From a virus, in the IMG/VR virus record IMGVR_UViG_3300045988_154248: a stretch of DNA of 64,000 bases. One strand, written 5' to 3'. Position numbers and translations under genes: made by a program. This document shows positions 5,031 through 62,074 of the stretch, one piece after another. How positions within the stretch are numbered: position 1 is the stretch's first letter; each line of letters opens with the position of its first letter. The notes beneath the pieces were generated by a model. The model searched no databases. It saw only the letters and a program-made list of their open reading frames with translations, and was not told where the DNA came from.

Positions 5031-5726
5031 CTATCTATATTTTCTCTTATCTTTCTTTTCTCTGGTACGAAGGATAAATTTCTTATAATCTTCATAGGAT
5101 GCAAACTGAATATATTTTCCTTCCATAACATCAAAACACTTACTCTCGTGTGCAAGTTCGTATTCATTAGAAGAAATCATAATATATAATTCGATGCCAA
5201 ATTCTTTTGCGTCCTTAATAACAAGATCAAAAAAATCCTTCATCTCAATTACATTATCAATTGAATAGCCAGAGTCCATTGCATCAAGTAGAATCCAGCG
5301 TTCGTTCGATACGTTATTCTCTTCGTTATCATCTTTTAACGCGAGCGTCTTTGCCAACGCATTGAATCTATCTCCATTATCACCAGTTTCAACAAATTTT
5401 CTTAACTTTGATGCAATCTTAGAAAGATTTAAAGAAATATTTTCCCCTTCAGAAGAACACAATGCTGTAGCCGTAAAAGAAAGATTTCCATAAAATATAC
5501 TTTCACTAATAGAATTATTCCCACCGTCTTTTTCATTATCATAATAAAATACTGGTATATCTTCTTTTTTAAGCTCAGATTTAATATTATGTAGAAGTGT
5601 TGTCTTGCCAGATCCGTTACAGCCAACCAGGACTGTTAATCCTTGTTGAATCTCAATCTGCTTTTTACGACATGTTGAAAATCCTGCGTCATATGGATCA
5701 CGCCATGTTTTGATTATTCTGCTCAT
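5031..5726 (-). CDS. ABC/SMC-type P-loop ATPase
   Basis: Walker A GCNGSGKTT, signature-like SSEGEN, Walker B WILLDAMDSG; 231 aa. Confidence 0.6.
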   Translation of the reverse strand: MSRIIKTWRDPYDAGFSTCRKKQIEIQQGLTVLVGCNGSGKTTLLHNIKSELKKEDIPVFYYDNEKDGGNNSISESIFYGNLSFTATALCSSEGENISLNLSKIASKLRKFVETGDNGDRFNALAKTLALKDDNEENNVSNERWILLDAMDSGYSIDNVIEMKDFFDLVIKDAKEFGIELYIMISSNEYELAHESKCFDVMEGKYIQFASYEDYKKFILRTREKKDKRKYR

Positions 5727-7208: not shown

Positions 7209-7715
7209 TTACTGATTTAATTTCCACAGTTCAACATGAGTATCAAGTTCATTAAAAATCTTCTGTATCATTGAATATACTTCGTCCCAATCTGCTCCAC
7301 CACGATCACAGCCGATCTTATATGGCATAGCAATTGTTGCACTAAAATTATTGTTCCTTTCATGTGCTTTCCAACACATAGTTCTAAAACACTTTTCTAA
7401 TGCTTCCAGAGAAGTATATTGTTTTCCGTCATATCCATAGTTATCTTGTGCAAAGAAATTACAAATCCACTGTTCATTACTTGGAATTGCAATCGATCCA
7501 CAGTCGTATCCAATATATTTTGGCTTGACTGGTACAATTTGTACTTTCCCCAGCATATCCGATGATGCTACCTTTTTATATTCTTCGTATACATGTGGAA
7601 ATCGCTGTCTGACCTGCAAAGCCACGCCAGATCCCATCTTTCCCATACAATTTACCTGATGACAAATAAATTTTGCATCCGTATCAAATAAATTTCCTTC
7701 GATAATTTCAATCAT
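7209..7715 (-). CDS. macrodomain protein (ADP-ribose binding/hydrolase fold)
   Basis: IEGNLFDTDAKFICHQVNCMGKMGSGVALQV is a typical macro/Appr-1''-p processing N-terminus. Start at ATG 7715 behind GGAGAA. Confidence 0.75.
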   Translation of the reverse strand: MIEIIEGNLFDTDAKFICHQVNCMGKMGSGVALQVRQRFPHVYEEYKKVASSDMLGKVQIVPVKPKYIGYDCGSIAIPSNEQWICNFFAQDNYGYDGKQYTSLEALEKCFRTMCWKAHERNNNFSATIAMPYKIGCDRGGADWDEVYSMIQKIFNELDTHVELWKLNQ

Positions 7716-9180
7716 GATTTTCTCCATTTAGTCTTTCACGAATCTCTTCAAAAGTCTGTTCTTTTACTAATTCTCCATCTTTAAAGACGAGTTTCAGTTC
7801 ATTTTCTTCTGGCATTGTATCTTCTGCATAACCATCATGACACACGAATTTATTTTCTTCTTTTACTACACAGCAAAGTCCTTTATGAGATTTCTTCAGA
7901 TTATTTTTATCTGTTTTTGGATTCTTCTGAATGGTATATTCTTTGCCATCAATTACACAATAAGTGCTCTTCATTGCAAATCCAAAAGTATCTCTTGTTA
8001 AGCAAACCATTCCATCTTCTGGCGTACACATTGCAGAGAAAGAAAACGCACCTACTCCAAAAAGAATCGCATCTGCTGCAAATCCTAATCCTTCAAGCTG
8101 TGTCCAAATCTCTTTGATCTTACTGTACTGACAACCATCTCCGTAAATGATTCCAATCTTTGGATTTAACTCCTTATAACCTTTTGAGTTTACAGTTCCA
8201 CCAAAAATCTGATATAATTTCTGAACAGTTTTTACTGAAATTTCAACGATATCGCCGCTATCAGGACGTACAAGGAATTTGCCATTATGCTCTTCGATTT
8301 CTTTTCTCAGTTTTGGAAGTGTTTCGTCAATAAGGTTCCAGTAATCAAATGTATCAGAGACATAACTGAAAGATGTATTCTTATATGTATCAGTCAGTAA
8401 TCTTCTTAACAGATTTTCTTCTGTCTCGCATACAGCCAGATTACTGCATACGGTTGCATGTTCCAGGCTAACTGCTCCAATACCAATATGGTTCTTAGCA
8501 CAATCAGCATCGTACATTTTATCAATATACTGAGTTGCAGGAATTGTAGAAGTTTTATTGAAAGATAGCAGCCATGAAGAACTTGCATGAACTCCGTTCT
8601 CAATGCCGAGTCCTCTGAATCCAAAATCCGCCATAGCCATTGCAGGATTAGCACCATCTGTAGTTTTCTCGTAAAATTCATTTGCAAGTGTTTTATATTT
8701 ATGACCTACAGTTGCCCAGTTGCATGTCCCAAAAATAAAAGACTGCATAATGCATTCCAGCCATTGTACCGTCCATGCGAAATCCGGATGTGCGTTACTC
8801 ATCTCAATACACGGGACTCCCATTGTTACAACAGATCCTTCTGGAAGAGCTTTGATCTCTACAGGTAAATACTGCAGATCCCATAATTTTTCGATACGTC
8901 CAAGATCATAACTCTGAGAACCGATCTGATTATCCAGATATTCTTTATATTCTGCAATAACTTCTTTTTTGGGTCTTTTGAAGAAAGTTTCATTTGCTAA
9001 ATCAATCATATATTCCTTAATAAAACCCTGTAATCCAAAGAATACAACTTCATTCAGATTTTTGAACATTGATTTTCTAGGAGTAATATAAGAAGTTAAT
9101 TTTGTAAGACCCTTTGGAAGAGCATCAGGATTTGTATTTTTATATGTATCTGCCATCAGCATAAAAGAAATGTTTCTCAT
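7708..9180 (-). CDS. nicotinamide phosphoribosyltransferase-like enzyme (NAMPT/NadV family; possible Namat)
   Basis: ADTYK, LVRPDSGD and IIYGDG motifs of the NAMPT family. Start set at ATG 9180 (GGAGG SD), directly after the upstream stop. Confidence 0.8.
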   Translation of the reverse strand: MRNISFMLMADTYKNTNPDALPKGLTKLTSYITPRKSMFKNLNEVVFFGLQGFIKEYMIDLANETFFKRPKKEVIAEYKEYLDNQIGSQSYDLGRIEKLWDLQYLPVEIKALPEGSVVTMGVPCIEMSNAHPDFAWTVQWLECIMQSFIFGTCNWATVGHKYKTLANEFYEKTTDGANPAMAMADFGFRGLGIENGVHASSSWLLSFNKTSTIPATQYIDKMYDADCAKNHIGIGAVSLEHATVCSNLAVCETEENLLRRLLTDTYKNTSFSYVSDTFDYWNLIDETLPKLRKEIEEHNGKFLVRPDSGDIVEISVKTVQKLYQIFGGTVNSKGYKELNPKIGIIYGDGCQYSKIKEIWTQLEGLGFAADAILFGVGAFSFSAMCTPEDGMVCLTRDTFGFAMKSTYCVIDGKEYTIQKNPKTDKNNLKKSHKGLCCVVKEENKFVCHDGYAEDTMPEENELKLVFKDGELVKEQTFEEIRERLNGENHD

Positions 9181-9181
9181 T

Positions 9182-9997
9182 TTAGACCTCCATAACTGTG
9201 ATTTTATCGTGTTTTCCTGTGAAAAGACTGTCTGTTGTAAATAATCTTTCAACTGTTCCATCTTCAAGTGATTTGATTAATGTTCCTTTTTCTCTATCAA
9301 GAACTGAATTTTCGGTATGTGATGCATAAGCATAAATTCTATCTACACCACGTTCTTTCAACGCTTTTGCACTATAATATAAAGAACCGCCATATGAAAT
9401 GATGTCATCAATCATCAAAACTTTTTTACCTTTAAGATCAATATCGTTATCTCTGATTTTGAGTCCAAGAATTTTTCCTGTATTCCAATCTCGATTTTTC
9501 TCACCATAGCAATACGGAATGTCAGAAAACAATCCAGAATATCTTTTCGAACTACCGGCATCCGGAAAATAAAGAATAAGATTTTCTTTACTAATCTGCT
9601 CAATTACTTCATCAATATATTCTCTTGGATTAAAAACATATACTCTATTCAAAAGCGCTGCTCCAACATTACTATGAACATCAAGTACCTCTACTCTATC
9701 AAATTCGAGCCAATTAATAACATCAGCGAACCCTTTTAATGTAAAAACCTCGCCCTGATCATGGATTCTGTCCATTCTGGCATTCGGAAGATAAAACATT
9801 GTAAGATCAATTGATTTAATATATGGAAAATTTTTTAAATGTTTTGTAATATAAATCAGCGCTGAAAGTTCTTCTTCTTTCTCATACTTCCATGTAATGT
9901 TGTTATATTTCTGATAAAAACAATCGTCTAATACGATTCTCTGTGTTCCATCTGGAAAGTGTTCTACTTTTACTTCTTTCCCATTTAAAATGATCAT
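9182..9997 (-). CDS. ribose-phosphate pyrophosphokinase-like enzyme (Prs family; possible ADPR-PP synthetase Adps)
   Basis: FPDAGSSKRY and PRPP-loop VLMIDDIISYGGSL; start at ATG 9997 behind GGAGAAT. Confidence 0.75.
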   Translation of the reverse strand: MIILNGKEVKVEHFPDGTQRIVLDDCFYQKYNNITWKYEKEEELSALIYITKHLKNFPYIKSIDLTMFYLPNARMDRIHDQGEVFTLKGFADVINWLEFDRVEVLDVHSNVGAALLNRVYVFNPREYIDEVIEQISKENLILYFPDAGSSKRYSGLFSDIPYCYGEKNRDWNTGKILGLKIRDNDIDLKGKKVLMIDDIISYGGSLYYSAKALKERGVDRIYAYASHTENSVLDREKGTLIKSLEDGTVERLFTTDSLFTGKHDKITVMEV

Positions 9998-11496: not shown

Positions 11497-13560
11497 TTAA
11501 AATTTAATTTTAATGGTTCTTTCTGTTGCACCTTTTACTTTAACGATAAGCTCATTACGCTGCGTCAGACTGAATCCAACTCCAGAGAGCTGATCATCGA
11601 CGTCTGTTACACTACACTTTGCGCCAAGTGCCTCAAATACTTTACGATGTGGAACTAATTCATTCTTAAGATATTCCACAAAGAAACCATTCGGCTGTTC
11701 TGGATTTACGCATCCATTCAGGAAGAAGAAAAGATGTTTATTCCCGATTCCATTCTGCTCATCAAAATAGTTCGGGCTGTAACTGATTACAGATACAGGT
11801 GTAAACTGATTTGTCTGCACTCCCCATACTTCTCTACTAGAAGTAGCCGAGTGACCAAAAAGTTTTTCTTTGATGGTAAAGTTTCCGTTCTTATCCATAA
11901 TTACTTCTGCGACGTCTACGTCTCCACGCACTGGGTTATTGTATTCAAACGAATAGATCTCGCCATCGAATTCAATTTCTGCTTTAAATCCTTTACTTCC
12001 TCGACTAGCAAACTGATTTACAAAAAATTTATAAACACCTGGCATCATTTTTAATTTATTCTGCCAAGTAATATTCTCTACTGCCGGTTTACCTGGCATC
12101 TGATTCATTGGCTGTGTAATATCAATATCAAGCTGACCACCAAGCTTCGACATAGATGGTTTTCTATCACTACCAAAATAGATTTCATGACCATTTGGTT
12201 CAATACAATGAGCATCAAGATCACTGTTATCGTTCTGATCCTCGTTCCACATAATAGAAAACCTAAGCACACCATCTACATTTCCACCAGCGTTCTTTAC
12301 ATTCTGTTTAATGTCAGAGTCAGTAATATTGCCTGTATATGCCCAGCTCAGACCATTATTCCACTTGAACATTGTTTTAGAATCAGGATCTTCTGGCGCA
12401 ATTAAAGAAACAAAATTCTTTTCATGTTTATTCTCTACAAATACTTCAACCTCTTTCGCAGTCGGAAGAACCTTTTCTACGAAATCCTGTGCAGTCACTT
12501 CTTCTACTCTAGAAAATTTCTTTGGATTAACTGCTACAGATTTTGACATCTCTGTAAAAATGTCTCCTCCACCAGAAATTCTCTTCGCTGCATCTTTATT
12601 AGAAAATAGAATATTATTTACTGTGATATCATCCAGATTTGCAAAGCGACGTTTCAGAGAATCCATATATCCAAGTTCTGTCAACGTTTTCTTTGCATCG
12701 TCCAGCATTCTCTGAGTATAAATTGGCTTACTCCTTTTATAGTTGCTGGGTGCTACAATCTGCTCGTATTTCTTTACTGCAAGATCGAGGCCCATTCCTT
12801 CGCTTACATTTACAAGTAGTGTTCCAATAGAATGATTTCTGATTTTACCAATAACGGCTCCTGCTTTTAGAGATTTCTCCCAGGCATAAAGATTTTTCTC
12901 TTCTTCCGGAATTTTGTCGTATTCCTTTTTGTATTTCTTGAATTCAACCAGCGGAATCCTCCACTCTGCTCCACGATACAGCGTATTGGAATTAATCAGC
13001 TCAAGAATTGTTTCCACAGAATCCATAGTGATCTCATCCAGAGAACGTTTAAATACGTTTTTAATATCTCTGTATTCACCATGGATATTACCTGCAGATC
13101 TACGAGAGTCAAATACAAACTTATCAGGAAGTCTCATATAAAAGTGATCCCACTGATGAGATTTTCCGTTGATCATTTCAAAGTTCTTATCTGTGCCAAT
13201 ATTTTTAAGCTGACTTACAAAAACATCGACTACCTCTTCGTTATGGATAAGTTTGGAAAGTGCCTTGACTACCGGCTCATAAATAGTTCCAGACATATCT
13301 ACATCCCAAATACTTTCCATTTTATTATCCTTGATTACAACCACAGCGCCGATTGTACGAATGAACTGGCGGCAGCAGGTACAGTCATGTTCTCTTCTCT
13401 CTCTAAAAATATTGTTCGTTCCTGGCGCAAAGCTATCGAGATATGTATCCCACAGCAGCTCCTTGTCTACGTCCACTTCGAATAACTTATCTGCATTTGC
13501 GGACATTTTATTGAAATGTTTCTGAAGCTTCTCCTTAAAAATTACGAACTGATCTAACAT
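11497..13560 (-). CDS. large hypothetical protein (687 aa)
   Basis: ORF track. N-terminal HDCTCCRQF Cys cluster. The C-terminal segment LRFSIMWNED..DLDAHCIEPNGHEIYF..GGQLDIDIT resembles, from memory only, YfaP/DUF2135-type beta-sandwich domains. Confidence 0.6.
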   Translation of the reverse strand: MLDQFVIFKEKLQKHFNKMSANADKLFEVDVDKELLWDTYLDSFAPGTNNIFRERREHDCTCCRQFIRTIGAVVVIKDNKMESIWDVDMSGTIYEPVVKALSKLIHNEEVVDVFVSQLKNIGTDKNFEMINGKSHQWDHFYMRLPDKFVFDSRRSAGNIHGEYRDIKNVFKRSLDEITMDSVETILELINSNTLYRGAEWRIPLVEFKKYKKEYDKIPEEEKNLYAWEKSLKAGAVIGKIRNHSIGTLLVNVSEGMGLDLAVKKYEQIVAPSNYKRSKPIYTQRMLDDAKKTLTELGYMDSLKRRFANLDDITVNNILFSNKDAAKRISGGGDIFTEMSKSVAVNPKKFSRVEEVTAQDFVEKVLPTAKEVEVFVENKHEKNFVSLIAPEDPDSKTMFKWNNGLSWAYTGNITDSDIKQNVKNAGGNVDGVLRFSIMWNEDQNDNSDLDAHCIEPNGHEIYFGSDRKPSMSKLGGQLDIDITQPMNQMPGKPAVENITWQNKLKMMPGVYKFFVNQFASRGSKGFKAEIEFDGEIYSFEYNNPVRGDVDVAEVIMDKNGNFTIKEKLFGHSATSSREVWGVQTNQFTPVSVISYSPNYFDEQNGIGNKHLFFFLNGCVNPEQPNGFFVEYLKNELVPHRKVFEALGAKCSVTDVDDQLSGVGFSLTQRNELIVKVKGATERTIKIKF

Positions 13561-14474: not shown

Positions 14475-15977
14475 TTACGCTGCGTTTCCTTTCCCAACAA
14501 GAAAGTTTTCGAAATCTCGTTTCATGAATCTGAAATTAATACCCTGATTGGAACTATATTCATCATCTGCATTCTGATATTCTCCAATCCACTGTTCAAA
14601 TTCCTGATCCTGATTATTCTGCGCTGCATAAACCATCAATGCAATTAACGCTGTTTTACACTGCTGATAAACATTTGCAGACACTTTTGTATTCTGAAGA
14701 CACTCGTTGTAAAATTCGATGTCGTCTGGATCTACTTTCTCATTTACATGAGTATGTACAAAATCAATATCATTCTGATCAATACGATCATCAACACCAA
14801 TGATTGCAGATTCTTCACCCTCTGAATTTTCTGATGAGTCTTTGATACTTTCGCTCTCTGCATCTTCATTTGGTTTATTCTCTTTAATATGTAAAAAATC
14901 CACTAATAAAGTATGTAAATAATCAATCTTCTGCTGAATTACTTTTTTGTCCTTCGTGTGTTTATCCTGTTCTATTTCAATCCAATCAGTATCATTGACT
15001 TTGATTTCTTTCATGTCATTAAATGCAATCAGGAATTTTCCAAAATTTTCTGGTGAAACTCCTTCATCTAAGGCTCTTTTCATAAGAGTCATCCATGCCA
15101 TAAAATCTTTTGGCACAAATAATTCAGCTACTTCTGTATGATCGAGTTTATCTGCGTAAGGAATTAACATATTAAAGTATTTGTTCAGTGTATCAAATTC
15201 TTCTTCTGTTCCGTTCTCATTAAGATACTTGCAGATATCCCTTGGCGCCTTTTTCCATTCTTCTAAATGAAACATCGCCATAACGCATTCGATGATCACT
15301 CTTTCCCAGATGCCTTTTTTCTTGTCTAACTCATTCAGCATCGTACAATCTTTAAGAAAACGATTATTATCTTTAATCCGTTTAATTTTATCCGCAAATG
15401 TACCAATGTAAGTAAACGCCTTCTGGCTTACATTCATTGGAATAGTAGAGTTATACAACATGACAAGATCGCAGGTATCTTCTGGAGTACATTCCTGATA
15501 AATTGCAGCAGACAACTGACATGATCTCATTCTCTTTTTCAGTTCTGGTGGGAAATCATTATAAGTTTTATTAACCAGATCAAATGTTTTGATTTCTTTG
15601 ATCAGTTTTCCATTTTCATCTCTCATAGGTTTTCCATTTTTATCCAGTTTGTTTCCTTGATAAGTCACATATCTATTCCGGATTGATTTAGAGATCTTAT
15701 GCCCATCAAACACAAAACGTCTGAGCGCTTCTGTTCTCTGACCACCATCCACTACGTATGTAGTAGTAAGCCCATCTTCTCTTTTTTCTTCTGCAAGAAT
15801 AATGTTGGGAATGTAAATCCGTTTTGGAGATACAGTACTATAAATCAAATTATTGATCATTTCATTTGACCAACAAAACGCTCTCTGGACTGCCTGATCA
15901 ACAGTAATAACTTCCTCATCAATACTATCAACATAAGCTCCTACGCCCATCTGTTCGATTCTGTATTCATCTAACAT
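14475..15977 (-). CDS. DUF262 (GmrSD N-terminal, ParB-like) domain protein
   Basis: VVDGGQRTEALRRF is a DGQQR-type motif about 75 aa from the N-terminus; 500 aa; no obvious His-Me/HNH C-terminal nuclease motif seen. Confidence 0.55.
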   Translation of the reverse strand: MLDEYRIEQMGVGAYVDSIDEEVITVDQAVQRAFCWSNEMINNLIYSTVSPKRIYIPNIILAEEKREDGLTTTYVVDGGQRTEALRRFVFDGHKISKSIRNRYVTYQGNKLDKNGKPMRDENGKLIKEIKTFDLVNKTYNDFPPELKKRMRSCQLSAAIYQECTPEDTCDLVMLYNSTIPMNVSQKAFTYIGTFADKIKRIKDNNRFLKDCTMLNELDKKKGIWERVIIECVMAMFHLEEWKKAPRDICKYLNENGTEEEFDTLNKYFNMLIPYADKLDHTEVAELFVPKDFMAWMTLMKRALDEGVSPENFGKFLIAFNDMKEIKVNDTDWIEIEQDKHTKDKKVIQQKIDYLHTLLVDFLHIKENKPNEDAESESIKDSSENSEGEESAIIGVDDRIDQNDIDFVHTHVNEKVDPDDIEFYNECLQNTKVSANVYQQCKTALIALMVYAAQNNQDQEFEQWIGEYQNADDEYSSNQGINFRFMKRDFENFLVGKGNAA

Positions 15978-52984: not shown

Positions 52985-54100
52985 TTATTTATTGACTTCG
53001 CTTTCCAGAATGTCAAACAACTGTGCATTACTCTTAACAGGAAATACCTTACTTTCGTAGAAAGCTGCTCCGCTACAATGTTTCTTCAAAAGATTTAATG
53101 TTTCCGTTCCGTGAATGCTTTCCATCTTCAGAAGAACATTGATATTTCGCTGTGTGAATGCATTCTTTTCTGTAGATCCGCACCAATTCAATTCTTTAAT
53201 CATAACGATTGCATGTTTAAGCGATTCAGGTCTGCGCTTTGCCATTCTTAACAGATTCATGGTTGGTGTAACTTTCCCAATAGGATTTTCTTTCCGATTC
53301 AGGTCAGCCGAGATCTGGATGTTGTATGCATCGAAAATCATTTTGAAATTAATATAATCTTCTTCGTTCGCTTCAATACCAGCTCTATACATATCACTAA
53401 CCGACATAGGTTTCCTTCCTGCCTGCTGTCCTAAGAAAACTAATACGGCCTCACACATTGTTTTACAATCAATAATCTCAACCAGAATTTTTAATTTTTC
53501 TGCTTTTCCTAACAGATTGTTTTTCATAATGAATGCAGCTAATCTATGTGCGCCATCGGCTACATATAATTTTCCATCAATAAGGAACACTTTGATCGGA
53601 TCGAATTTCGATTCATTGAAATTTTCTTCAATCTCTTTTGCCTTTACCATGTCCGTACTTCTCTGCCAGTCTGGAATATGTACAAACAGTGGGTTGATTG
53701 TTATATATTTTTTATTTCCTACTGTCAAAGGATACCGTAATGCATTGCTTACTTCCGATGTTTCCATTTCTGCATCAAAATCCCTCTGTTCATTAATCCA
53801 ATTTTCGAAATCGACTGATGTCATATAATGCCGAAATCCTTTTGCTCTTCTATATTTTTCATATGTCTTTCCCATCGAATCTGAAAAGCTGTATCCTACA
53901 TCATGAATTTCGATGTCATCTTTATTAATTTTCAGGATAAAGCACAGCTTTTTCACTTTTCCTTCCGATGGGTTACTTTTGCCTGTTTCATAATTGGAAA
54001 TTGTGTTTTCAGTCACACCGAGTTCTTTTGCAAGTGCTTTCTGTGACATGCCGGCTTTCTCTCTCATCTCTGTTAATTTTACTCCATTGATTTTACACAT
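52985..54100 (-). CDS. XRE-type HTH fused to a ParB-like N-terminal (nuclease/CTPase-fold) domain
   Basis: N-terminus LTEMREKAGMSQKALAKELGVTENTISNYETGKSNPS; mid-region PIKVFLIDGKLYVADGAHRLAAF (ParB-N core). Confidence 0.65.
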   Translation of the reverse strand: MCKINGVKLTEMREKAGMSQKALAKELGVTENTISNYETGKSNPSEGKVKKLCFILKINKDDIEIHDVGYSFSDSMGKTYEKYRRAKGFRHYMTSVDFENWINEQRDFDAEMETSEVSNALRYPLTVGNKKYITINPLFVHIPDWQRSTDMVKAKEIEENFNESKFDPIKVFLIDGKLYVADGAHRLAAFIMKNNLLGKAEKLKILVEIIDCKTMCEAVLVFLGQQAGRKPMSVSDMYRAGIEANEEDYINFKMIFDAYNIQISADLNRKENPIGKVTPTMNLLRMAKRRPESLKHAIVMIKELNWCGSTEKNAFTQRNINVLLKMESIHGTETLNLLKKHCSGAAFYESKVFPVKSNAQLFDILESEVNK

Positions 54101-56165: not shown

Positions 56166-56402
56166 TTACAAATAGAATGTAACTTCTACTTGTGTAGGAA
56201 TCCCGAATGCAATTACATTACATACACGAGTTTCCATTGTGTTATCTTCCAGATATTTCCGTTGTTGGATTCTGGAATCATACATTCCTGTCAGTTTCCG
56301 CAAAGTATCTTCTACGTTTTCCGGTATGAACTGTTCCGCAATTTCTCTGTGACGCCGTGAAAATTTTGTCATCGGAATACAAGTAATATCATTTCTTTTC
56401 AT
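56166..56402 (-). CDS. hypothetical protein
   Basis: ORF track 78 aa. Confidence 0.45.
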   Translation of the reverse strand: MKRNDITCIPMTKFSRRHREIAEQFIPENVEDTLRKLTGMYDSRIQQRKYLEDNTMETRVCNVIAFGIPTQVEVTFYL

Positions 56403-56631
56403 TTGTGTTTCCTCCTAAGATCATTCTTGATGCTTTCAGCGCATTGTTTGCCTTGAAATTTCCAGTTTTGATAAACACAGATAATAAAGCAGGTGCTAAT
56501 TCTTCTACTAATTCTGTAGTATATAACATATTACAGATAGCATTGAAAATACCCATGGTTGCCTTGTCATTTTCTAAATGATTGCTTTTAATTGTAACCA
56601 TCATTGCGTTTTCTGCCTGGATTGCGTTCAT
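56389..56631 (-). CDS. hypothetical protein
   Basis: ORF track 80 aa. Confidence 0.5.
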   Translation of the reverse strand: MNAIQAENAMMVTIKSNHLENDKATMGIFNAICNMLYTTELVEELAPALLSVFIKTGNFKANNALKASRMILGGNTNEKK

Positions 56632-56670
56632 GTTATTCTACCTCCTGTTTTACCTTTTTACATTCTCTGC

Positions 56671-57204
56671 TTAATAGTCATAACCACAAGATAATGAAAT
56701 CATTGATGCATTACCAGAAAATTCCCAATGAGCATAAGTTGTGTGTTCTTTCCATTCCGGTTCTGACCGTCCAAAATCTCGTGCTTCCATTCCAGGAATT
56801 AATCGCTGCCCAGATCCACCGCCTTTCTTTCTTGTAACCGCGCTTTTCATCATTTTATCGAAATTTTCCGGTTTGCATTCTCTGATTGGGTGAACTGATT
56901 TCGCTTTACTTTCTTTATGAGCTTTCCAGATGCTGCACGCAAGTTTCCGTTCGAACTCATTCTTGCTATAGGTGGCGATTATATCTCGTTCCCATTCGTT
57001 ATAAACCGAATTGAAAGCCCACACATACAAATAAACGCGGTTTCCTTTATAGTTTGGGAACGAGTCACACACGTACCGAACGCCGTCATATTGAGTATAT
57101 ACGGCATTTACTGGGAAAAGTTTTCCCGCCATTCTGAATTGTTTTCTTGCAATGAGATAACGCGTATCTGAGCATTTTTTAAACACTTCTGAAATTTTAC
57201 ACAT
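56671..57204 (-). CDS. hypothetical protein
   Basis: Track frame; start at ATG 57204 behind AAGAGGG. Confidence 0.5.
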   Translation of the reverse strand: MCKISEVFKKCSDTRYLIARKQFRMAGKLFPVNAVYTQYDGVRYVCDSFPNYKGNRVYLYVWAFNSVYNEWERDIIATYSKNEFERKLACSIWKAHKESKAKSVHPIRECKPENFDKMMKSAVTRKKGGGSGQRLIPGMEARDFGRSEPEWKEHTTYAHWEFSGNASMISLSCGYDY

Positions 57205-57379
57205 GGTTTTCCCTCTTTTCTTTCTTATTTTCATTGCAAAGCTGGAAATTTAAGTACGCAAAAAAGACGTTGCACACACAACGCCCATTTTCGGGTATCA
57301 AAAAGCACTTAAAAAAATAAGTGTTGAAAATCGCCCGTAACTTTTGACGGTCACGGGCGATTATATTGCGATTGCGTGG

Positions 57380-58342
57380 TTATTTCTGTTTCTTCTGTTC
57401 AAAAGTCAGATTGCCCTTAATTTCGAACTTTCCACCCTGTTTTTTCAGGACGATTGCTTTTACAAGAACTCGTTCAAATTTCTTGTAGTTCACTGTCTTG
57501 AACAGGAATTTTCCGTTTCCGTCCTGTTCAATGTTGAAACCAGAAACAAGGGTCGCCAGGTTATTTAATTCCGTTGGGGTCATTCTGATGGAACGAGACG
57601 CAAGTACCTTATTCCCGTCCGATTTTGTGACAGAAAACCGCGAAAACAGGTTTTCCATCTCAGCGCGGAATGACAGATAAAGTTTTTTTGTATCTTCCGT
57701 TGTTTCACCTCCTGTTCGTCCTAATTCGTGACGGTAAAGCTGGGCACTCTGTAAAGGTTTTTCAAAAACCTTTTTCCAGTCCGAAACGTTGCCGGACGCA
57801 AGCGAACAGAACAGTTCAAAATGGAGCAGCTGTTTTCCAGTTCCTTTTACCTGGGCAACGTATACCGGAGAAATAATACCGGAAATTTTTTCGCACGCGT
57901 CACGCAACGCGTCACGGCGGTTAGTGAGATCCATTCTCACATCTTCTGCCGTCAGAAGAAACGCGCGGAGCTTTAAATATTCCGTACTTTCTTCCGTATC
58001 CAATTCGAATACATCACGCTTGTTTTCAAGCTCTTTTGCGCGCGCTTCAGACTTTTCAACCGTTTTCAGAAAACTTTCTAACTTGTTTTCTGAAGCGGTT
58101 TTTTCCTGTTCCATACAAGCCGCGAAAACGGCGTTTTTGTAAAGAACCGGAGTGAGAACTACACCGACAAGTGAAAGTTCATTAAAATCGGTATAAGACC
58201 GTGAGATAATCCCGTCCGAAACGAGATCGAAAACAACGCGGTTATAGACAAGCGCGGTTTCATCTACTACAAGACGAGTTCCGGAAACAAGGTTGATAGA
58301 AGCAAGTTCGTTGCGGGTTACTTTCAGAATGTTATACATCAT
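57380..58342 (-). CDS. hypothetical protein (about 320 aa, central coiled coil)
   Basis: Track frame; start at ATGATG 58342 behind AAGGAGG. A 7-bp hairpin at 58362-58380 lies just upstream. G+C clearly above the window average. Confidence 0.55.
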   Translation of the reverse strand: MMYNILKVTRNELASINLVSGTRLVVDETALVYNRVVFDLVSDGIISRSYTDFNELSLVGVVLTPVLYKNAVFAACMEQEKTASENKLESFLKTVEKSEARAKELENKRDVFELDTEESTEYLKLRAFLLTAEDVRMDLTNRRDALRDACEKISGIISPVYVAQVKGTGKQLLHFELFCSLASGNVSDWKKVFEKPLQSAQLYRHELGRTGGETTEDTKKLYLSFRAEMENLFSRFSVTKSDGNKVLASRSIRMTPTELNNLATLVSGFNIEQDGNGKFLFKTVNYKKFERVLVKAIVLKKQGGKFEIKGNLTFEQKKQK

Positions 58343-58429
58343 GGTTTTTTCCTCCTTAAATGCCGTGTACTTGACACGGCGAAACAAAATTGATAAGATA
58401 TGTATTGAAACAATTTCGGCGCTCATAAA

Positions 58430-59010
58430 CTCACGTTTTCGTCAATATTTCAAGCGGGCGACTTGAGCGCCACGACTTACGGGAAACGTCCCGCGACGTA
58501 TTTTAATGGAACACGTAAACCGAAAAGGGAGCGACTTGAGCGCCACCACTTTTTTTATTGCAATTTGTAGGGAGCGACTTGAGCGCCACCGCTACGAAAA
58601 GGTGTTTCGTTCGAATGTAGTCTGTATATCCCGTGTACAGGTGGGAAAACGCATATCATCACACGCGCCCACTTTGTTTACCACTCAAGTGCTGCTGATT
58701 TTAAGCAGATATTTGAAGACGGTTACTCGTGTTACCCGTTCGCGTACATCTCACGACGTTCGCGCGCTCAACTGGGAATAGTCCTATTCGGTATGGACTT
58801 TGTACCGGGCAAATTAGTTTGCCGAACTCATGCAAGAATAGAATGCAGATGGATTTTCCGCCATCCGCGGAGCGGTTACACGTCCGCGTAATAGATACTG
58901 AGACTAAGGTTGACAGTTACAATCCCGGGCGGTGTCCGGTATACAGAAGAAGAAACACCGCGAACGAAACGACCGTTCGCGTACCGTTTAGGCTATCACC
59001 CTTTCGGTAA
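58430..59010. other. GC-rich, hairpin-dense non-coding region (candidate large structured RNA or protein-binding array)
   Basis: No minus-strand ORF of 60 aa or more. The two plus-strand track ORFs lack an SD and are Arg/Ser/Thr-rich. GC-rich hairpins at 58480-58493, 58808-58823, 58848-58865, 58929-58961 and 58959-58981. 12-nt repeat ccgttcgcgtac at 58736 and 58973. Confidence 0.5.
58456..58590 (+). repeat. three direct repeats, core GCGACTTGAGCGCCAC
   Basis: 58527-58547 and 58570-58590 are identical 21-mers GGGAGCGACTTGAGCGCCACC; 58456-58473 shares the 16-nt core. Core-to-core spacing is 73 and 43 nt. Partial inverted copies (ccactcaagtgc at ~58681, gcgcgctcaactg at ~58761) lie downstream. 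Confidence 0.8.
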
Positions 59011-59022
59011 TTGTATTATCTC

Positions 59023-59208
59023 ATAAACATGCATAGATTGCAAGTGTTTTTTAGTGAAATTATACACAAATTATAAACATGCATAGAACTATTTTTAGTG
59101 CATATTGCTAGTTGATTAATTGTCGTTGTGTAATATACACAATAGATGCGGTATAAGTAATAGTATTATGCAGCATATTGGCAAATAGTAATATTACACA
59201 ATAGATGC
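59023..59208 (+). repeat. two pairs of direct repeats upstream of the RHH-like gene
   Basis: ATAAACATGCATAGA at 59023-59037 and 59073-59087, each followed by TTTTTAGTG. GTAATAT(T)ACACAATAGATGC at ~59129-59149 and ~59188-59208. Confidence 0.7.
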
Positions 59209-59244
59209 AATAGTTTATTGTGCAAAGTGCTGAAAATAAAATAA

Positions 59245-59460
59245 TTGAAAGAAGGTATCATATTGTCAGAAACTAACGAGTCACAATTAAAAGCTGTCAG
59301 AAAATATAACTCGCAATGTAAAAGTGTCGCAATACGCTACACTCCAAAAGAATTATCAGAATTTGAAAGGTTAGAAAGATATATTTCAGAAAATAATGTA
59401 AATAAAGCCGAATATATTAAAAATTTAATAAAAGCAGATCTGGACAAAAAGGGCTATTGA
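59245..59460 (+). CDS. small DNA-binding-like protein, possibly ribbon-helix-helix
   Basis: ORF track 71 aa (TTG start). KSVAIRYTPKELSEFERLERYISENNVNKAEYIKNLI has a beta-strand then two-helix pattern typical of CopG/Arc-type proteins. Confidence 0.4.
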   Translation: MKEGIILSETNESQLKAVRKYNSQCKSVAIRYTPKELSEFERLERYISENNVNKAEYIKNLIKADLDKKGY

Positions 59461-59486
59461 CTGCAAAGTGTACCAGAATAGAAGGT

Positions 59487-59524
59487 TGACTATTGGTCAG
59501 TTTAGAATGACTATTGGTCAGTTT
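59487..59524 (+). repeat. two perfect 17-nt iterons TGACTATTGGTCAGTTT, 21-bp period
   Basis: 59487-59503 and 59508-59524; each contains the internal palindrome TGAC-N5-GTCA. Confidence 0.8.
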
Positions 59525-59530
59525 GTAAAT

Positions 59531-59670
59531 TAGGAATGATTACTATTATTGATTTTATGGAAATGTGAGGTTTAGTACTGGTAAACTTTTTGTTTAGTAT
59601 TTGTATATGTGGAAATTGTGGATAATGTGGAAAACTTATGTAGATAACTTGATAATAGTAATCATTCCTA
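59531..59670. repeat. 19-bp perfect inverted repeat enclosing the DnaA-box cluster
   Basis: taggaatgattactattat (59531-59549) pairs with ataatagtaatcattccta (59652-59670). Confidence 0.8.
59608..59634 (+). promoter_or_regulatory. three contiguous head-to-tail DnaA-box-like 9-mers (origin-like)
   Basis: TGTGGAAAT-TGTGGATAA-TGTGGAAAA. The middle box is the exact complement of consensus TTATCCACA; the flanking boxes differ at 2 positions each. Confidence 0.6.
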
Positions 59671-59965
59671 TTTTCGATATATAAAATTTTTACATATGAC
59701 CTTACGTCACACTTTACCACCCTTTTTCAACTTGCCACCGGAACAGCGCGCGCCATGGTCAAAAATTTTTATTTTACCAAACAATAGAAAAAATTTTATC
59801 TATTGTCAAAATATTTTAAATTGTACTGAAATTGTGTTATGCCATGTAAAATACCTGTTTTTCGGGGTAAAATGACGTTGTGATCTGTTTATTGTCTGAG
59901 TAGTCAGACGGGGGGTAGTTAAAATCAGCAAATTGTCTGAATTTTCTGAAATCTCACATAGCTGG

Positions 59966-60420
59966 TTCATCTACACACTAACTCCAAAATCCATCACTCC
60001 ACCCAATCTCCCTATCTCACCACCCTCCCATTCCACCCATCCAAAAACAATCCACATTTTACCTAATAATCAAGCCCAAAACCCCATCATATCACCATAA
60101 AACCCCATATCGTACCCCTTATCGTAAACCTCAGTAATCAAGCCTTAAAATCACTCTGCCCTTCAAATTTTACTCTCCACTTTTTCACCCTCAATCAAAA
60201 ATACCCCATATAAATTCTGGCCTCAAACGATAAACATTTTACGGATTAAAAATTGCACTCTTCCTCTCTCCTTCACTATTTCAACACTCACCTATCTAAA
60301 CCATATCATATCATCACAAATCATCCTTACTATTGATCTAAGGACAAAACAGTATTATAATCAACCTAGAATCCATTCAAACACATACACCCTATAAACT
60401 GTCCACCAATACAAGAAAAG
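59966..60420 (+). other. G-depleted, C/A-rich tract (plus strand); G-run-rich on the minus strand
   Basis: Hand count: 20 G in 450 nt (59971-60420), and a 108-nt stretch with no G at all (59966-60073). The minus strand at 60002-60038 reads GGGtggaatGGGaGGGtggtgagataGGGagattGGG. Confidence 0.85.
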
Positions 60421-60429
60421 AGGAAAATC

Positions 60430-60948
60430 ATGTCATTTCGTGATGAATTGTCCAGCCTTACACCAACGCAAGAACAGTTCCAGACTAAAGCAACATCTGA
60501 AGCACAAACAAATGCCAGACTTGATTATTCTGGTGTAAAAGATCTTTTACGCTCCAAAGCACAGCATAATGAGTACACAACTATAGGCAATCATAAATAT
60601 ATCTCTTGCTATTATCCGGATTCCTATTCGGGCGAACCAGAAGCTGCAGAATATGTCAGACGAGTCTGTGAAACAAGAACAACCATGCATAGAAGAGGAT
60701 TATTTTCTGGACAAGTACAAGAAACATCATGCATAATCTCTTATGTTATTACAAACCAATCTGCATATGATGAATATTTAAAAGAATTACAAAGACTTGC
60801 TGCAGAAGATGATATTCGTATATCTGTAGTAGGATATAATAAATTAGAAAAACGCACCGAAATATCAATTCCCTGTTGTCTCGGATCAACTTTACTGGCA
60901 AACAATTATATGTACAGAATCAAACTTAGTGTCAGCATCACATTTTAA
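60430..60948 (+). CDS. hypothetical protein
   Basis: ORF track 172 aa; AGAGGAAAATC SD. Confidence 0.55.
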   Translation: MSFRDELSSLTPTQEQFQTKATSEAQTNARLDYSGVKDLLRSKAQHNEYTTIGNHKYISCYYPDSYSGEPEAAEYVRRVCETRTTMHRRGLFSGQVQETSCIISYVITNQSAYDEYLKELQRLAAEDDIRISVVGYNKLEKRTEISIPCCLGSTLLANNYMYRIKLSVSITF

Positions 60949-61303
60949 ATAGGAAATAACTCAAATAAAATAAGGGTAGATGACCATAAAAATCACCTAC
61001 CCTATACAAAAAGATACTTCTACAGATTTTAAATCAATTTTATATCCATACCCTAACAACTATCCACTAAGCACATTAAAATTTGTTCTAAACAAATAAT
61101 CTCACATACTCTCCTACGATCATACCCAAGAAATGATCTGTATCCTCTTATACCAGACACACCATGGGGGCTACTTTTAAACTCCAGCATAAAAAGATCT
61201 TCTATTTCATATATACCTATATAATATACAGAATTTACCATTTGAATGTTTGTTCGAATTATGCTAAAATTATTAATATCAAAAATATAAAGGACTGTTG
61301 GGC

Positions 61304-62074
61304 ATGAATGATTTATATAGCTTTTTCTATTGGGGAGATTACAATGCTCAGATGGCGGAATTAGCAAAAAGAGCACAGTCAGAGCCGTGGTCTTTTGGAA
61401 ATATAAACGATTATTCAATTTTAAAAAATTATATGAAACATACTTTCCAAAAACTGCAGAGTGAAGGGAAAATCGTTACAGCAAAATATTATTGTATTTT
61501 TAATACAGGCCTATATGATAATTATAACGAACCAATTTATGTATATGCAGAACCTAATAATAGATTAGGCTATTCAAGTTGGATATTTAAAGGATTCAAA
61601 GATTGTTATGAGCTAGGCGATTTAAAAATCATTGATTTACCAGAAAGAGCTGATTACTTTTTTGATCCAGGCAAACTCATATTCAACTGGCATTATCCCG
61701 TTAATGTTCATTATGAACACATCTTAGATGACCTTAATACAGCGCAGCGTTTACCAGAACGTATTCGGACAAGTGATCTTGCATTGGAAACACTAAAAGG
61801 AGTAATCGATTCTTCAATTCAAAAGGTTACTGCGAATTATAAGCTTGCTATTCCTCATTACTACAATAACAGGATTCAGCTAATGATTCCATTATATTTC
61901 AACAAAAATAATATTCCTGACGTTGCATTGGTGCTTAATGAAATAGATGGAAAGTGTTACCAAGCAAGAACATGTCTTTCCATGAAGATGGCATACATTG
62001 ATGCAAGGATTATTTCTAAGCCTGATGTGTTCTGGTTATCCTTTGATACAATTAATGCAAGAGAAGAAGAATAA
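61304..62074 (+). CDS. DUF3825-like protein (tentative)
   Basis: C-terminal YKLAIPHYYNNRIQLMIPLYF..DVALVLNEIDGKCYQARTCLSMKMAYIDARIISKPDVFWL matches my recollection of the DUF3825 core; ATG 61304. Confidence 0.45.
   Translation: MNDLYSFFYWGDYNAQMAELAKRAQSEPWSFGNINDYSILKNYMKHTFQKLQSEGKIVTAKYYCIFNTGLYDNYNEPIYVYAEPNNRLGYSSWIFKGFKDCYELGDLKIIDLPERADYFFDPGKLIFNWHYPVNVHYEHILDDLNTAQRLPERIRTSDLALETLKGVIDSSIQKVTANYKLAIPHYYNNRIQLMIPLYFNKNNIPDVALVLNEIDGKCYQARTCLSMKMAYIDARIISKPDVFWLSFDTINAREEE

Follow-up and report, generated by a model that had tools for sequence, protein, structure and literature searches.

A non-coding tract at positions 59966-60420 of the viral DNA analysed here (64,000 nucleotides (nt) of IMG/VR virus record IMGVR_UViG_3300045988_154248; hereafter the window) is almost free of G on the plus strand. 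We found that this composition is conserved in relatives with constant polarity, that G is selected against in the tract, and that the tract edge coincides with mapped DNA ends in several relatives. The tract is probably best read as the inner flank of a genome terminus and as part of a conserved cis-acting hub. Because of the mapped ends in relatives, its likeliest role is packaging initiation or end formation, a reading to which we assign a probability of about one half. As such, it appears to be a terminus-flanking cis element that had not been described before: we found no account of such a tract in the literature on SPbeta pac/terminase and on the T7 arrays. The preliminary description of the window, made from the letters alone, had reported the base composition, and the adjacency of the tract to a terminus or packaging start was absent from it.

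A non-coding tract almost devoid of G

All of the earlier counts proved correct. The segment 59966-60420 (455 nt) consists of A164 C150 G20 T121, with C at 33%, and 59971-60420 (450 nt) likewise contains 20 G. Its first 108 nt (59966-60073) form the longest G-free run in the 64-kb window (runner-up, 82 nt), and 60001-60060 contains 28 C and no G. The GC skew falls to -0.86 at 60000-60199, and the most extreme and longest stretch with C in excess of G in the 64 kb is 59919-60367. The plus strand is already G-poor over the whole window (G 12.65%, C 21%), because nearly all of the genes between 351 and 58426 lie on the minus strand. In block shuffles keeping the local composition, a G-free run of at least 108 nt recurred in 8-9 of 300 cases (p~0.03 for the run alone). 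The C-minus-G excess of 131 per 450 nt, the largest in the window, was never reached in block shuffles (maximum 103), and the binomial probability of 20 or fewer G in 450 nt is 2.7e-9. The tract is A/C-rich with more A than T and is located where the genes have already switched to the plus strand, whereas the remaining G-poor stretches of the window are T-rich and antisense of coding DNA. The A+C richness with an excess of A over T is the opposite of coding antisense, which explains the other G-poor stretches.

No open reading frame (ORF) spans the tract, as first reported; the sole overlap is an ORF of 55 amino acids (aa) at 59933-60100. The possibility that the tract is coding in an alternative genetic code was rejected by reading, since TAA stops close all three plus-strand frames. 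The predicted fold of the plus-strand RNA is weak (-21.5 kcal/mol over 471 nt), and on either strand the tract folded no better than shuffles. Long-range pairing between the tract and the C-poor region on its left (see below) was not convincing, and a tandem-repeat search (TRF) within the tract returned only a 12-nt unit in two copies. Rfam gave no match at the gathering score in the whole window, and chance-level matches only at E<=5 in 58300-61400. A tRNA search of the window found none, and blastn of 58900-61300 against phage and plasmid collections gave no match.

Conservation of composition and selection against G

Relatives were drawn from IMG/VR, ENA and Logan as contigs of 100-215 kb. 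Scanning IMG/VR with an alignment of YonO, the single-subunit RNA polymerase encoded downstream, yielded 80 loci, 59 of which were scanned for the tract (YonO identity 49-100%). A tract with G<=6% and C>=27% was present in ~45 of the 59, 4-9 kb upstream of YonO, and in every case the strand poor in G was the YonO-sense one. Its length in the family is 200-570 nt by a strict window test and reaches 890 nt when a looser test is applied. A G-poor tract is also present in SPbeta, Enterocloster phage PMBT24 and Clostridium phage c-st.

The preliminary description had proposed checking whether relatives conserve the skew rather than the sequence, and they do. All close relatives keep the skew, including two in which the protein encoded after the tract (172 aa in the window) is only 63% identical. 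In an alignment of ten versions, 40% of the columns are variable and the C-rich parts contain several indels, and still only 8-15 G occur per 320-400 nt. This residual G is confined to the invariant boxes TATCGTA, AATCAAGCC and AACGATAA, and between the boxes sequence turnover is high, with many indels, and yet G remains at 3-6%. Comparative data settle that the tract is real; it is also non-coding, conserved and under selection.

The 56 distinct versions share one box order. The outer part consists of palindromic operator-like sites, a GGGGGTAGTTAAAAC box, ~30-40 variable nt and the edge TATAGCTG(A/G)TTCATCYACACACYAACTYAAAAATC; the inner part continues with a G-free variable spacer, AAATCAAGC, TTATCGTACCCCATATCGT(M)AAA, more G-poor DNA and a sigma-A-type promoter. 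The window presents these ordered boxes as GGGGGTA, ~40 nt, (T/C)ATAGC, TTCATCYACACAC and the tandem TATCGT, embedded in the G-depleted backbone. Of 53 distinct loci, 47 have tandem TATCGY at +40 to +200, and the box is absent from the rest of their 1.12 Mb. A family profile built without the window's own lineage matched the window at 59902-60156 (nhmmer, E=1.9e-23), which was its only match in the 64 kb, and with nhmmer --max it gave a weak but collinear match at the right place in SPbeta (E=0.014). Neither the SPbeta edge nor the edge motif of the family found a match in scans of genome contigs, and a metagenome scan with a 15-mer returned mostly random matches along with nine true family matches.

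The substitution spectrum of twelve sequences was compared between the tract and the adjacent non-coding DNA. Purine columns are polymorphic for A/G in 9.6% of cases in the tract versus 21.6% in the flank, which is 2.2-fold lower (Fisher p=0.0037). The C/T share of the pyrimidine columns is 25.8% versus 14.5%, and A/C transversions number 23 in 334 columns of the tract versus 7 in 490 columns of the flank. We conclude that G is selected against, because pure mutation bias at equilibrium would not lower the A/G polymorphism.

Separately, a comparison of the relative L001 (3263-5607) with window 56302-60037 revealed a recombination breakpoint inside the tract, at 60037. In L001, the upstream hub has been swapped for a GC-rich segment with a minus-strand 176-aa gene, and the GGGGGTGGTTAAAAC box and the tract are retained.

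Coincidence of the tract edge with DNA ends in relatives

The 99,962-bp record of PMBT24 contains only three extreme skew tracts, two of which flank the record junction. Its G-poor tract lies at 275-767 (G 4%, C 32%) and its C-poor flank at 99585-99962 (C 3%, G 44%). Position 1 of the record is the PhageTerm terminus, termed a 'pac site' (PMC11035940). The terminus is thus located ~300 nt before the tract, and GGGGGGTAC and TATAGCTG boxes lie at ~250-307.

In SPbeta, the ~350-400 nt that immediately precede the yonP promoter (SPBc2 record ~64190-64530 for the tract) are low in G and high in C when read in the yonP/yonO sense. This region has, in the window's order, ATGGGGGTAT, the edge CCATAGC, two ATCGTA 12 nt apart (+68/+80), AGCCTTAAAT, CTTCAAATTTACTC and three inverted TACGAT. 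Kohm et al. (bioRxiv 10.1101/2021.11.22.469490) located the opening point of the SPbeta, phi3T and Goe11-14 genomes in the yonR-yonP interval. The same work described a precise ~250-bp block of excess coverage, equal in all isolates, with packaging toward yonP and almost no permutation in SPbeta itself, and gave a supplementary block sequence that starts GCTATGGGTAC (bioRxiv 10.1101/2021.11.22.469490). Since GCTATGGGTAC is the reverse complement of the edge, the SPbeta block ends exactly at the start of the tract, after CCATAGC.

Two independent Bacillus records also begin at the block: that of BUCT082 at its outer edge, with only 3 C in the last 120 nt of the record, and that of BUCT083, opened exactly at the inner edge. 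In c-st (NC_007581.1), which encodes YonO, a 404-bp terminal direct repeat is annotated; the 200 nt inside its left copy contain 6 G (3%), and the 346 nt to the left of its right copy have 19% G and 9% C, with GTATCGT/ACGATAC boxes. The simplest reading of these data suggests that the SPbeta-type block, published as ~250 bp, may be a short exact terminal repeat, as in c-st. By analogy, the window phage is predicted to have a DNA end after C59962, at 59962/59963, and a block of ~280 bp starting near 59680, which is probably a short direct terminal repeat or a pac block. The motif ATATGAC..CTTTACC(A/C)CC is common to the predicted block near 59680 and the start of the c-st terminal direct repeat.

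Layout of the hub

The features of the hub in the window are as follows.

59410..59679, plus strand: mirror flank, C-poor (8%) and G/T-rich
59608..59634, minus strand: three head-to-tail DnaA-box-like 9-mers (TRF period 9, 3.1 copies)
59680..59962, no strand: predicted terminal block of ~280 bp, based on homology of architecture; left edge approximate (+-15 nt)
59910..59925, plus strand: conserved GGGGG(G)TAGTTAAAA(Y) box, ~50 nt before the tract edge and invariant in the ten-version alignment
59957..59992, plus strand: boundary box CATAGC|TGGTTCATCTACACACTAACTCCAAAATCC, with the predicted DNA end after C59962
59963..60332, plus strand: core of the G-depleted, A/C-rich tract (G ~4-5%, C 33%), non-coding
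60010..60038, minus strand: G-quadruplex-like motif GGG-N6-GGG-N1-GGG-N10-GGG, not conserved
60067..60081, plus strand: TAATCAAGCC box, copy 1 (ten-version alignment, repeat search)
60108..60125, plus strand: tandem TATCGT-N6-TATCGT box with a 12-nt period, ~100 nt inside the edge
60135-60149, plus strand: TAATCAAGCC box, copy 2 (ten-version alignment, repeat search)
60226-60233: AACGATAA, inverted relative to the tandem TATCGT box
60333..60361, plus strand: sigma-A-type promoter-like site TTGATC-17-TATAAT, nearly invariant in relatives, which closes the tract and would serve the first right-arm gene
60430..60948, plus strand: first gene after the tract (172 aa), with no family and a narrow distribution, outside the element
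60949..61200, plus strand: second, weaker G-poor spacer (G ~3-9%) between the 172-aa and DUF3825 genes

The mirror flank contains a 23-nt inverted repeat (59527-59549 / 59652-59674). C-poor flanks to the left of the terminal block also occur in c-st, BUCT082 and some IMG/VR relatives; the flank is pronounced in some lineages, and faint or missing in many or most family members. The DnaA-box-like 9-mers of the window are TGTGGAAAT, TGTGGATAA and TGTGGAAAA, of which TGTGGATAA is the perfect complement of TTATCCACA. Palindromic operator-like sites and TGTCAGA/TCTGACA motifs lie within the predicted block. The GGGGG box is family-wide, with counterparts at the same distance in SPbeta (ATGGGGGTAT) and PMBT24 (GATGGGGGGTAC), and the family consensus of the tract edge is TATAGCTG(A/G)TTCATCYACACACYAACTYAAAAATC. 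At the TAATCAAGCC box, AAATCAAGC is conserved across the family alignment. A second spacer low in G is likewise seen 1-1.6 kb downstream in several relatives.

On its right, the tract runs up to the Shine-Dalgarno sequence (AAGAGGA) and the ATG of the gene at 60430-60948. The counterpart of the promoter-like site in SPbeta, TAGACA-17-TATAAT, occupies the same place before yonP, and the yonP promoter region of SPbeta is bound by the master repressor MrpR (PMC10516654). The preliminary description had proposed that a plus-direction transcript of the tract would be a long leader for 60430-60948. This proposal was not borne out: the promoter-like site at 60333-60361 comes only at the 3' end, the family shows no consistent promoter directed into the tract, and the downstream gene is unrelated in PMBT24, SPbeta and c-st.

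Comparison with known systems

The yonR-yonP 'pac-site region' of SPbeta is the homologous locus, with the same succession of block, CCATAGC edge, G-poor tract, TATAAT promoter and first gene of the YonO arm; its opening point is reportedly described by Fink & Zahler (1982) as well as by Kohm et al. SPbeta shares the GGGGGTA box and the tandem ATCGTA boxes with the window, but its tract is shorter (~190-350 nt) and more T-rich and its similarity to the window is weak. In the SPbeta literature consulted, the ~250-bp block is described, and not the G-depleted tract or its boxes. The phage-plasmid c-st is alike in having YonO, G-poor DNA inside the left repeat, a C-poor flank to the left of the right repeat and TATCGT-type boxes beside the repeat. 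It differs in that the tract is very A/T-rich (C only 14%), the boxes are on the other side of the repeat and the edge motif is different.

The closest classical analogue is the T7 SRL array, which is said, from the work of Dunn & Studier in 1983, to lie next to the left terminal repeat at the concatemer junction. According to our computation, ~190 nt just inside the left T7 repeat are A/C-rich and G-poor (G 8-16%, C 22-40%), with the same polarity as in the window and with early promoters next, the repeat of the window being a predicted one. The T7 array differs in being composed of CCTAAAG-type heptamers, a periodicity that the window tract lacks, and in lacking a mirror-image counterpart of the flank beside the right repeat; moreover, T7 is not related to the group described here. 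Lambda cosB, SPP1 pacL/pacR and T3/T7 pacB are likewise cis stretches of a few hundred bp with repeated protein-binding boxes, located on that side of the cut which is first to enter the capsid, as would be the case for the element of the window. We know of no strand-specific base depletion in these sites.

A probable terminus-flanking element and possible reasons for its G depletion

These comparisons are consistent with a hub in which a variable C-poor flank, with or without DnaA boxes, would be followed by a terminal block of ~250-400 bp holding the packaging start, then by the edge (T/C)ATAGC, the G-depleted tract with its boxes and an early sigma-A promoter. The putative protein-binding boxes in the tract (TTCATCYACACAC, AAATCAAGC and TATCGT-N6-TATCGT) may form a cosB/pacB-like platform for terminase or an end-processing factor, placed on the first DNA beyond the terminal repeat at the packaging-start end. 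The constraint acts on one strand while the sequence turns over, which points to a single-stranded state or a strand-tracking enzyme. The G-free backbone might therefore serve a step that involves displacement, resection or tracking of a single strand, with strand displacement or resection at the repeat and the movement of a helicase or polymerase as candidates.

Several points weigh against this assignment. The mapped ends all come from relatives (the SPbeta group, BUCT082/083, PMBT24 and c-st), and the block pattern occurs once in the contig of one IMG/VR assembly, such assemblies being uninformative on ends. The authors of the SPbeta and PMBT24 studies read pac/headful packaging rather than an exact repeat (bioRxiv 10.1101/2021.11.22.469490; PMC11035940), and the PMBT24 peak is on one strand only (PMC11035940). 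Proteins that bind double-stranded DNA need no strand-biased composition, so that terminase binding alone leaves the G depletion unexplained, and PMBT24 and its close relatives do not have the TATCGT box. The DnaA boxes next to or within the block agree at least equally well with a role in replication. In addition, the short-repeat phages SP6, phiKMV and N4 have no G-depleted flank inside the left repeat, indicating that such a flank is not a general requirement of terminal repeats.

A more specific form of the terminus-flanking explanation, which we put forward only tentatively, is that the tract and its variable mirror partner constitute a composition-coded 'subterminal' element, one strand of which would work single-stranded during end processing. 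The strand running 5'->3' away from the repeat would be kept G-free, and the 3'-ending strand would be G/T-rich and C-free, resembling a telomere. Possible uses would include resection and annealing of short repeats, repeat duplication by strand displacement, and helicase/primase loading. If this is true, the T7 SRL array would be a convergent counterpart, and an ancient cis-element would be common to Bacillus SPbeta, the C. botulinum toxin phage c-st and many human-gut Clostridia phages.

Three other explanations, an origin accessory, a Rho insulator and motif avoidance, each account for a part of the data. A role as an origin accessory, which we consider rather unlikely, would make the block a replication origin, DnaA-dependent in some members, with the G-free strands carrying a DnaB-type helicase/primase outward, or with inward G-rich transcripts whose R-loops open or prime it, the idea of the preliminary description, which named ColE1 RNA II, T4 oriF and mitochondrial CSBII as examples. 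Clusters of DnaA boxes are found at 59608-59634 and, in 11 of 56 relatives, within or close to the block: the window has three tandem boxes of the TTWTNCACA type 330-350 nt to the left of the tract, and several relatives (e.g. L057, L065, L083, L092 and L102) have 3-4 boxes at 12-nt spacing inside the block. Given these boxes, the term 'origin-like region' in the preliminary description was reasonable, and packaging and replication functions may be co-located; most relatives, however, have no DnaA boxes and only a weak mirror flank. The switch of gene orientation and GC skew at the hub, the mirror-symmetric skew around the block in the window, PMBT24, c-st and BUCT082, the pure A/T stretches embedded next to both PMBT24 tracts, and the fit of a strand-specific constraint with a single-stranded phase all favor an origin. 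Nevertheless, the G+C content of the tract is above that of its surroundings, arguing against an unwinding element, and neither the window scan nor the ten-version alignment revealed a conserved leftward promoter (weak minus-strand promoter-like sites lie at 60454-60427 and 60194-60167, the latter not conserved). The G runs are not conserved either, and a leftward transcript would have them at its distal (3') end, contrary to the usual arrangement, with the initiation zone ahead of the elongation zone. An origin also leaves the coincidence of the mapped DNA ends with the tract edge unexplained. Somewhat less likely still is a Rho-loading (rut) zone, which would terminate plus-strand transcripts coming from the block before they reach the early promoter and would thereby insulate the early/YonO operon. 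The composition is exactly rut-like and unstructured (at least 70-80 nt of C-rich, G-poor RNA, if the plus strand is transcribed), and this explanation accounts best for selection for high C as well as low G. A 183-nt transcript in the yonP sense, ncr1052 (= ncr44), was reported in the yonR-yonP gap of B. subtilis 168 (PMC2965217); by approximate mapping, it starts in the block and ends at most ~90 nt into the tract, where there is no hairpin terminator, and read-through would matter at the repressor-controlled yonP promoter region. Its signal, however, amounts to only 2 reads with coordinates that cannot be mapped exactly, no consistent promoter points into the tract across the family, and the strictly lytic PMBT24 retains the tract. 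An intrinsic terminator would suffice in 40 nt, whereas the tract is five times the length needed for Rho loading, and the conserved DNA boxes and the DNA end that it abuts are left unexplained.

The remaining explanations concern composition itself. Avoidance of motifs, which we regard as improbable, would mean that the absence of G from one strand bars sites needing both G and C, such as the ATAGC cut site and nearly all palindromic restriction sites, and so keeps cleavage at the terminus precise and unique. This agrees with the confinement of the remaining G to conserved boxes, the AGC within the edge motif and the counter-selection of G-creating changes. However, either polarity would then do, yet the polarity is constant in the relatives, c-st and SPbeta; C enrichment above background would not be required; and a length of 190-890 nt is hard to justify for a local cutting rule. 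A neutral mutation bias without function, such as loss of G from the plus strand through cytosine deamination of a strand that is frequently exposed close to the end, is more doubtful again. The skew appears to decay from the edge, with a weaker second spacer and a 172-aa gene that has more C than G, unlike the next genes, and A exceeds T in the tract. A bias at equilibrium predicts that A/G polymorphism per purine site should equal or exceed that of the flanks, the opposite of the observed reduction, and it accounts neither for the enrichment of C to 33% nor for the conservation of specific boxes at fixed positions. The least probable explanation is that the minus-strand G-quadruplex, which the preliminary description had singled out, is the functional unit. 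The five GGG runs do exist at 60002-60038, the fifth extending the motif to 60002, but one loop is 10 nt long, so that the motif passes only a relaxed rule of 1-12-nt loops and not that of G3+ with 1-7-nt loops. L001 and L010 lack this segment through deletion and keep the rest of the tract, and of the 56 versions, only 7 contain a canonical and 16 a relaxed motif, which largely refutes this reading.

The terminus-flanking explanation has several implications. The signature GGGGGTA...TATAGC plus a G-free tract with tandem TATCGT would mark the genome end or packaging start in a large and almost unstudied group of gut phages and phage-plasmids of 85-215 kb. Selection can hold the base composition of one strand while the sequence drifts, and this constraint points to a single-stranded or strand-tracking step at phage ends that is undescribed for this group. 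The function is directly testable, because the element is present in SPbeta of B. subtilis 168, for which rho, dnaA and terminase genetics are routine.

Phage context and the YonO arm

The proteins of the window point to large Firmicutes phages or phage-plasmids. One PHROG-1735 protein is 60% identical to a protein of Clostridioides phage pCD1602_4, and ParB-HTH, nicotinamide phosphoribosyltransferase and GmrSD-like proteins are encoded at 52985-54100, 7708-9267 and 14475-15977, respectively. The HTH-ParB/DUF6551 fusion protein suggests a plasmid-prophage lifestyle as in c-st. We rejected pCD1602_4 as a comparator for the tract, as its many G-poor stretches are coding antisense (T>A) and no clear counterpart was found.

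The arm to the right of the tract has a conserved order: the 172-aa gene, DUF3825, a Bro-N or 331-aa gene, a 359-aa gene, then a UvrD/PcrA helicase, a dCMP deaminase and an 857-aa protein. The last is a YonO-type single-subunit RNA polymerase, located at L021:12983-15556, ~7.5 kb to the right of the tract and beyond the end of the window. In this lineage (L021/L038), YonO is encoded in the same arm and on the same strand as the tract, and its DxDGD motif is invariant. It is 51% identical to the PMBT24 protein and 35% to that of c-st, and matches SPbeta yonO with E ~1e-14 to 1e-18 (tblastn). Judged by this similarity, YonO ties the large gut-phage group to SPbeta, PMBT24 and c-st. PMBT24, SPbeta (yonP, 64 aa) and c-st (CST001) each have an unrelated gene in first place after the tract, and no homology was found between the 172-aa gene of the window and the first downstream gene of PMBT24.

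The tract was also considered as a YonO promoter and rejected, as the start region of SPbeta YonO, bracketed by published primers, has no similarity to the edge motif. The yonN-yonK gap of SPbeta, where YonO starts transcription, is GC-rich and not G-poor.

Other observations in and around the hub

A 71-aa gene without a family match (59245-59460, plus strand; 63-71 aa in relatives) lies in the hub to the left of the C-poor flank, and its product could be a small DNA-binding protein acting on nearby repeats. Operator-like repeats, some of them palindromic, occur at 59487-59524, 59263-59300 and 59891-59949, with TGACTATTGGTCAGTTT present twice and several TGTCAGA/TCTGACA. In PMBT24 and L100-type phages, the corresponding position ahead of the GGGGG box is occupied by TTGTCAGAAAAT / TTGTCTGATAATTC. 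The heptamer ATCTGTT is found at 59877-59890 in the predicted block and, in the opposite orientation, where the SPbeta block has its inner edge (L035 ~12540-12550). ATCTGTT is the class II pause and concatemer-junction signal of T7; the match is probably due to chance, because YonO is unrelated to T7 RNA polymerase.

The record of PMBT24 (OQ326496.2) annotates many plus-strand 'hypothetical proteins' of 30-40 aa in non-coding DNA (608-998, 5281-5699 and 98261-99355), the G-poor tract included. Those in the tract are spurious ORFs that arise because TAG and TGA stops are missing there. In the second spacer of the window, a hairpin with a 13-bp stem (60973-61003) directly follows the 172-aa gene; it resembles a terminator of leftward transcripts, because the T-run is only on the minus strand.

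A 580-nt non-coding region at 58427-59010, upstream of a minus-strand 348-aa gene, has a G+C content of 45-50% in a ~34% genome. Within it, GCGACTTGAGCGCCAC occurs three times (58452-58594) and the minus strand, whose RNA has a fold z=-2.3, carries terminator-like hairpins; the region could be a structured leader or a non-coding RNA. SPbeta likewise has a GC-rich non-coding gap of 1.7 kb between yonN and yonK, in which an unannotated RNA has been reported.

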